Below are positions 62,069 through 62,280 of a stretch of 64,000 nucleotides of DNA, piece after piece (the stretch's first letter is position 1; every line of letters starts with the position of its first letter). The DNA is taken from NCBI RefSeq assembly GCF_003334785.1, contig NZ_QOWV01000003.1, one strand, 5' to 3'. This DNA is from Escherichia coli (GTDB lineage: Bacteria; Pseudomonadota; Gammaproteobacteria; Enterobacterales; Enterobacteriaceae). The translations under genes and the position numbers were made by a program. Below the pieces are notes generated by a model. It had not been told where the DNA came from. It worked only from the letters and a program-made list of their open reading frames with translations, and searched no databases.

Positions 62069-62280
62069 ACAATAGCTCTCTTTTTTTGAATATTGTTTTC
62101 TAAGTGACAATTAGCTTGCGACGTGCCGCAAGAAAGATCAACCATCTGGTTGGTTGATATGCGATAGTGATCACAGGACATTTGATAACTTGATGAAAGT
62201 ACAAGTTTTTATCCTTTTTACTGGAGCTTCTAATTAATCGGGTTAAGATAGTTATCTTGAAGAGGTCGTGGGGAAGCGTT

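Follow-up and report, generated by a model that had tools for sequence, protein, structure and literature searches.

In a 64-kb stretch of the Escherichia coli chromosome (hereafter the window), a 212-bp spacer (positions 62069–62280) separates an operon on the minus strand, led by a gene for a short-chain dehydrogenase/reductase (SDR), from ytfA on the plus strand, which encodes a TetR-family regulator. Here we report that a 22-bp inverted repeat in this spacer (62137–62158) probably serves the neighbouring YtfA as its operator. Judged from the sequence comparisons below, YtfA is likely to keep a CRP-activated operon repressed by occupying the −35 hexamer together with the DNA on which the C-terminal domain of the RNA polymerase α subunit (α-CTD) docks. 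Such a repressor-plus-CRP switch is a conventional architecture, previously undescribed for this operon. The original prediction had described the segment as the divergent regulatory region of a TetR-family gene, and the arrangement of the SDR gene on the minus strand and the TetR gene on the plus strand is as it stated.

Conserved elements of the ytfA–SDR spacer

We compared 16 orthologous spacers, whose TetR proteins showed 57–96% identity; CRP cores and promoter hexamers were tabulated for 15 of these loci. The sources were E. whittamii, E. albertii, a divergent Escherichia lineage, several E. coli lineages, Citrobacter, Klebsiella spallanzanii, Salmonella, Lelliottia, Entomohabitans, and Leminorella, together with six more distant ortholog contigs (TetR identity 57–67%). 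Alphaproteobacterial TetR homologs (34–42% identity; L007–L023, L025, and L026) were not used, as the same operon is not adjacent to them. The gene order of the operon was kept across the orthologs, with a major facilitator superfamily (MFS) transporter in others at the position of the E. coli tripartite ATP-independent periplasmic (TRAP) transporter.

Outside Escherichia, the spacers could not be aligned save for one island, in which AAAGATCAACCAnnTnGTTGGTT is directly followed by TGTGA-N6-TCACA. The 22-bp repeat and this CRP site were the only two spacer elements conserved in the 16 orthologs, and an alignment-free footprint agreed, with its top windows at 62133–62158. The original prediction had singled out 62137–62158 as the best operator candidate, a choice that the comparison bears out: it was the most conserved element of the spacer and travels with the TetR/operon pair, one site being found in each orthologous TetR/operon locus examined. 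The pair carries the site into unrelated contexts, including Leminorella, metagenome contigs with different neighbours, and both the TRAP and the MFS versions of the operon.

The distance from the repeat to the SDR start codon was 63–78 bp in every ortholog, whereas that to ytfA was variable (90–125 bp, and longer in Entomohabitans). Therefore, the module belongs to the operon promoter. In Entomohabitans teleogrylli (L006, 5700–5930), a G+C-rich insertion of ~210 bp lies between the CRP/operator module and ytfA, and the operator is still 64 bp from the SDR gene. Two further features of the spacer were recorded. A short unassigned block, ATAAC-N4-5-TG(A/T), at 62185–62196, downstream of the CRP site, is kept in distant orthologs. 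Two GATC (Dam) sites 33 bp apart, one at 62136–62139 in the −35 hexamer and left operator arm and the other at 62169–62172 in the centre of the CRP site, are widely conserved in the orthologs; a role for their methylation is speculative.

The predicted YtfA operator, ATCAACCATCTGGTTGGTTGAT (62137–62158), is a perfect 8-6-8 inverted repeat, and its 22-bp dyad lies near the divergent target, over the predicted −35 hexamer of the operon promoter. Among 11 distinct variants, the core formed by CAACCA (62139–62144) and GTTGGTT (62149–62155) was essentially fixed. Two overlapping dyad registers can be drawn in it: register A, AACCA-N6-TGGTT, is centred at 62147.5, and register B, CAACCAnnTGGTTG, at 62145.5. 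In the most distant ortholog (L056, 57% TetR identity), one symmetric change from A-T to G-C falls within register B. Neither arm varies, yet the need for a −35 element can account for the left arm alone; with the pairs of the dyad kept as well, a dimeric protein is indicated. The helix-turn-helix of the YtfA orthologs is near-invariant, matching the fixed core of the operator. L056 also carries a second copy of the operator, ACCAACCATTCGGTTGGTTTGT (2826–2847 of that contig), just downstream of the −10-like hexamer; both L056 sites are best read as CAACC-N4-GGTTG dyads.

A position weight matrix built from the variants gave a single strong hit in the window and likewise one per ortholog locus; no further site above the range of shuffled sequences turned up within the operon, ahead of the transporter genes, or in the rest of the window. 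A search for other copies of the palindrome had been proposed as a check on the original prediction, and it came out in favour of 62137–62158, which has just one copy in the window and one in each E. coli genome that carries the island. In BLAST searches, which detect near-identical copies only, a 30-mer with the operator had exactly one copy in each of 3143 E. coli genomes. The operator was present in the ~3140 E. coli genomes carrying the island and in no others.

The second conserved element is a CRP binding site, the 22-mer ATATGCGATAGTGATCACAGGA (62157–62178). Its core TGCGA-N6-TCACA, TGCGAtagtgaTCACA at 62160–62175, agrees with TGTGA-N6-TCACA at 9 of the 10 core positions, and the cores of all 15 tabulated orthologs agree at 8–10 of them. 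The centre of the site (62167.5) is 19–20 bp from the centre of the operator in the orthologs. Occupancy is supported by chromatin immunoprecipitation sequencing (ChIP-seq) of CRP in enterotoxigenic E. coli (ETEC) H10407, which reported TGTGATCACTATCGCA between an "ETEC-specific" gene and ytfA (PMC4287617). This is the exact reverse complement of 62160–62175, and the sequence was confirmed in H10407. Another CRP-type site, TGTGATGAACTTCAAA, between yjfY and rpsF (window 51399–51414), is also a target of CRP ChIP-seq in ETEC H10407.

For the operon promoter, on the minus strand, we predict a −35 hexamer TTGATC (62136–62141) within the promoter-proximal arm of the operator, a −10 hexamer CAAGCT (62113–62118), and a transcription start at ~62106 (62104–62108). 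The −35 hexamer was conserved as TTGATC in 13 of 15 orthologs, with TTGATA and TTGTTC in the remaining two, and L066 fits too. The −10-like hexamer was separated from it by exactly 17 nt in all orthologs; it reads CAnnnT in all but one, with CATnTT in other genera and TAAGTT in L056, and A at position 2 and T at position 6 were invariant. The centres of the CRP site and the −10 hexamer are 52 bp apart (51 bp in distant orthologs). Counted from the predicted start, the operator spans −52 to −31 and the CRP site is centred at −61.5 (−60.5 in the distant group), a placement that would correspond to class I geometry.

Proposed model of repression by YtfA

We propose that the operon has a weak sigma-70 promoter that depends on CRP bound at TGCGA-N6-TCACA in the class I manner. 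The palindrome at 62137–62158, placed directly between these elements, overlaps the CRP site at one end and the −35 hexamer at the other. One or two YtfA dimers bound to it would occlude the −35 hexamer together with the α-CTD docking site beside CRP. With YtfA bound, the operon would be off even in the presence of the complex of cyclic AMP (cAMP) and CRP, and a pathway-related ligand would release YtfA from the operator. Because bound YtfA would cover both the −35 hexamer and the α-CTD docking DNA, transcription of the operon would need cAMP-CRP as well as the inducer.

ytfA itself would be transcribed from its own weak promoter ~100 bp away, probably outside the control of this operator. Alignments point to a −10-like element for ytfA on the plus strand, TAAGATAGT (62244–62252), which is represented by TATGATAGT in other Escherichia and Salmonella and by TGnTATAGT in distant orthologs. 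It is ~100 bp from the operator, and no second conserved site was found there. Since the operator is anchored to the operon and its distance to ytfA varies, the classic two-way autoregulation of the TetR type is not indicated, and autoregulation of ytfA through this operator is not supported by the comparison.

The proposed arrangement resembles those of TetR/tetO, QacR, and AcrR in the TetR_N helix-turn-helix, in a regulator gene divergent from its target, and in a palindrome of 16–22 bp over the target promoter; by analogy, release by a ligand would be expected for YtfA. It differs from them in that the predicted operator is ~110 bp upstream of the ytfA promoter at an unconserved distance and is unrelated to tetO in sequence. 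The likeness to class I CRP promoters of the lac P1 type lies in a TGTGA-N6-TCACA site ~61.5 bp upstream of the predicted start, a weak core promoter, and CRP occupancy by ChIP-seq. A specific repressor would be the second input, as at lac, giving the logic of substrate present and glucose absent. In contrast to lacO1, which lies over the start site, the predicted YtfA site is located between CRP and the −35 hexamer (−52 to −31). The expected mechanism would therefore be occlusion of the −35 hexamer and of α-CTD docking, a form of anti-activation.

Remaining inverted repeats and alternative explanations

The original prediction listed four inverted repeats in the spacer as candidate operators. 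All four are present in the sequence. CTTGCG-N6-CGCAAG (62115–62132) and ATCAACCA-N6-TGGTTGAT (62137–62158) stand at the positions given for them, and the coordinates of the other two were one base off: the perfect 8-bp palindrome GTGATCAC is at 62167–62174 (not 62166–62173), and AAGATA-gt-TATCTT is at 62245–62258 (not 62244–62257). In 5000 dinucleotide shuffles of the 212-bp spacer, a perfect 8-bp palindrome appeared in 56%, and repeats with 6-bp arms and loops of at most 10 nt occurred at a mean of 0.63 per shuffle. An arm of at least 8 bp was found in just 3.5%. The window holds ~20 distinct repeats of this class, many of which are terminators. By these statistics, only the 8-6-8 repeat at 62137–62158 is mildly unusual, and the other three palindromes are not above chance; the 8-6-8 repeat rises above chance because of its conservation across the orthologs.

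None of the other three held up as an operator. CTTGCG-N6-CGCAAG lies inside the spacer of the predicted operon promoter, is not conserved, and was judged to be a chance feature: its right arm is altered in ATCC 25922, strain 1943, E. albertii, E. whittamii, and ETEC H10407 (by one base), and its RNA fold is no better than that of shuffled sequences (z = −1.3). Varying among E. coli lineages as it does, it appears to be a lineage-specific coincidence. The same palindrome forms a sigma-54-like match on the minus strand (62130–62115, GGCACG-tcgc-AAGC, of the form GG-N10-GC), which we regard as coincidental because GGCAC is absent in other E. coli lineages and genera. AAGATA-gt-TATCTT overlies the conserved −10-like element of ytfA. 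The palindrome occurs only in the lineage of the window; other lineages have TATGATAGTC or a TCATCA-type sequence, and it is absent in other species, so this repeat too is a coincidence of one lineage. GTGATCAC consists of the spacer and the right half-site of the conserved CRP site, for which there is ChIP-seq support, and it is broken in ATCC 25922 (GCGATCAC), where TGCGA and TCACA are retained.

Several points weigh against repression by YtfA at 62137–62158. A consensus promoter scan of 61900–62450 returned no sigma-70 promoter. The scan missed the predicted one because its −10 hexamer is weak: in E. coli, it matches the consensus at 2 of 6 positions, and the start was obtained by arithmetic from the conserved hexamers and the CRP centre. 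A weak −10 hexamer, for its part, fits an activator-dependent promoter. The two dyad registers fit equally well, making the stoichiometry and the half-sites ambiguous, and the restriction of the BLAST test to near-identical copies counts here as well. The published ChIP-seq peak coordinate is ~200 bp off the CRP site in the RefSeq record of H10407. Although YtfA counts among the TetR-family regulators recorded for Escherichia and Salmonella, no published function, target, or binding site for it was found; the little study that it has received is partly explained by E. coli K-12, which retains just a truncated ytfA remnant that is treated as a pseudogene.

A centre near −41.5 would also suit an activator of the class II type, in which case YtfA would be a co-activator with CRP, from tandem sites at −61.5 and −41.5, instead of a repressor. 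Some TetR-family proteins do activate, the centre of register A falls at −41.5 under the predicted start, and the promoter hexamers are weak. We nevertheless consider co-activation unlikely, as the site includes the −35 hexamer and covers the α-CTD docking region of the class I CRP site, and as TetR-family proteins that act locally and are encoded divergently are, in the great majority of cases, repressors released by a ligand. The second operator copy of L056, near the predicted start and just past the −10-like hexamer, occupies a typical repressor position and thus supports repression. Binding of a genuine palindrome by a different regulator, either a global factor or RutR, a paralogous TetR-family protein, also seems improbable. 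The site strictly co-occurs with ytfA orthologs in varied contexts, and there is one site per genome, while RutR is a multi-target regulator. The RutR box TTGACCAnnTGGTCAA and register B (CAACCAtcTGGTTG), the first the site of a TetR-family protein of E. coli and the second the predicted site of another, do have a 7-2-7 dyad and the ACCAnnTGGT core in common, and the sequence of the window's lineage, TCAACCAtcTGGTTGG, agrees with the RutR consensus at 9 of 14 positions including that whole core, which counts further against YtfA; weak RutR ChIP targets agree at 7–13 of the 14 (PMC2475637). However, the outer positions differ (TTGACCA in RutR, TCAACCA in the site), and the core is broken to TAGTTG in most orthologs, including other E. 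coli lineages, with the remaining site invariant. The repeat was not assigned as a RutR box, the match of 9/14 in the window not being conserved. RutR and YtfA are distantly related (PDB matches to RutR at E = 3e-7, in the N-terminal domain).

That all four palindromes are operators, with YtfA or partners binding at several sites, is very unlikely. AAGATA-gt-TATCTT, over the −10-like element and the probable start of ytfA, would be well placed for autoregulation, but it and the other two lesser repeats share no sequence with the conserved operator and are not conserved among E. coli lineages; repeats of their size are expected by chance, and GTGATCAC is explained by the CRP site. The repeat at 62137–62158 almost certainly does not act as RNA, whether as a hairpin, a weak intrinsic terminator, or an attenuator. 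Under the conserved promoter model, it lies upstream of the transcription start, its arms are conserved in sequence with a single symmetric change (L056) and no repeated compensatory changes, and distant orthologs lose the outer pairs without compensation. A terminator scan flagged the repeat on the minus strand as an 8-bp stem followed by CTTTCTT, and the hairpin has a predicted energy of −9 to −10.5 kcal/mol (z about −3); against this, 3 of the 8 stem pairs are G-C, the T-run is interrupted, and there was no Rfam match. A Rho-independent terminator and a structured RNA were both rejected on the G+C-poor stem, the CTTTCTT tail, and the lack of compensation and of an Rfam match. We consider repression by YtfA at 62137–62158, with CRP as the activator, the probable reading.

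Flanking genes, YtfA, and the candidate pathway

The window covers the chromosome around rplI, ytfB, and fklB. On the minus-strand side of the spacer, where the SDR ATG ends at 62068, an eight-gene operon (53145–62068) was delineated by open reading frames, the annotation of the prokaryotic genome annotation pipeline (PGAP), NCBIfam matches, and synteny with Salmonella, Leminorella, Citrobacter, Lelliottia, Klebsiella, and metagenome contigs. It encodes the SDR, annotated as "3-ketoacyl-ACP reductase" (61277–62068), a TIM-barrel AP_endonuc_2 protein (60425–61267), an enoyl-CoA hydratase (59639–60421), a fused CoA-transferase (58088–59629), a 693-aa FAD-dependent oxidoreductase (56010–58091), and the TRAP components DctQ (55513–56013), DctM (54169–55470), and DctP (53145–54116). 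Between the end of dctP and rplI lies a hairpin, AAAACGCCGACCAtTGGTCGGCGTTTT (53055–53081), whose 13-bp arms have A- and T-runs on their outer sides; the operon probably ends at this hairpin, which would act as an intrinsic terminator in both directions. Elsewhere in the window, two identical 17-bp palindromes, CGACCTTGCCAAGGTCG, stand 111 bp apart (18974–18990 and 19085–19101). Of 5426 complete E. coli genomes, 3131 (~58%) contained at least 80% of the SDR–ytfA segment, and outside E. coli the operon was found in Salmonella, Citrobacter, Klebsiella, Lelliottia, and Leminorella. A literature search under Salmonella locus tags and the PDB codes of the TIM-barrel relatives yielded nothing useful on the operon.

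ytfA (62281–62928, plus strand) encodes a 215-aa protein with the Pfam domains TetR_N (3e-14) and TetR_C_29 (4.4e-30), and its PDB relatives are all TetR-family proteins. Of the two starts originally offered, TTG 62257 and ATG 62281, the latter stands and the former was rejected because all orthologs begin with MY(L/I/F) and PGAP uses ATG 62281; the TTG is at or upstream of the probable transcription start of ytfA. ytfA and ytfB converge, and their 3′ ends share 17 bp (62912–62928). Frameshifted or truncated ytfA alleles with the operator kept were seen in several genomes (P0063, P0067, and L065 at 1002–1549), and these may be natural variants with constitutive expression.

The best solved relative of YtfA is 3NPI, an uncharacterised TetR-family protein (1.7e-16). 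Weak full-length relatives include Bacillus FadR, Thermus PfmR, and KstR2 (PDB 3VPR, 5GPA/5GP9, 3WHB, and 4W1U, E = 1e-5 to 1e-11; NCBIfam FadR, 3.6e-12). YtfA resembles such acyl-CoA-responsive regulators in standing beside an operon for a CoA-transferase and an enoyl-CoA hydratase, and differs from them in that the matches are far below family cut-offs and its C-terminal domain is TetR_C_29. The YtfA operator motif presumably differs also from the operators of FadR, PfmR, and KstR2. Hexuronate boxes of the ExuR/UxuR type (GntR family), whose orientation is TGGT..ACCA, were rejected, as the ACCA..TGGT of the site has the opposite orientation.

Clues to the substrate come from the transporters. 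The distal TRAP genes dctPQM of E. coli and close relatives (window 53145–56013) are replaced in Salmonella, Leminorella, and metagenome orthologs by a gene for an ACS-family MFS transporter (L050, 403–1680; L051, 210–1487). Its matches (1e-92 to 1e-94, below the family cut-off) place the replacement in the D-galactonate/ACS subfamily. The solved structures most closely related to the TRAP binding protein had E-values of 1e-56 to 1e-71 and include 4X8R with glucuronate and 4N8Y with galacturonate (PMC11668362). Also among them, 4N91 and 4MHF bind glucuronate/galacturonate, and the glucuronate-binding STM3169 was modelled on 4N15 (PMC7660916). The homologies of both transporters make a sugar acid plausible as the pathway substrate, and they suggest a sugar acid or an acyl-CoA derived from it as the effector of YtfA. 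The original prediction, which named the pathway substrate or its CoA ester as the likely effector, is a reasonable possibility on this point. The 693-aa FAD_binding_2 flavoprotein (56010–58091) had no PDB match at E ≤ 1e-10, and its NCBIfam matches, to the fumarate reductase and aspartate oxidase families, were all below threshold.

Taken further, and as a rather doubtful proposal, the YtfA/CRP switch may govern a CoA-dependent pathway, so far undescribed, by which E. coli, Salmonella, and relatives would use a hexuronate-like sugar acid, with YtfA sensing an intermediate, binding a composite operator of two dyads, possibly as two dimers, and anti-activating CRP. If this is true, the sugar acid would enter through a hexuronate-clade TRAP or an ACS-family MFS transporter, and the later steps would involve the SDR, a TIM-barrel isomerase or dehydratase, the CoA-transferase, the enoyl-CoA hydratase, and the 693-aa fumarate-reductase-like flavoprotein. 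The precisely located candidate operator, the promoter model, and the CRP input offer an experimental handle on the inducer and hence on the substrate of the pathway.

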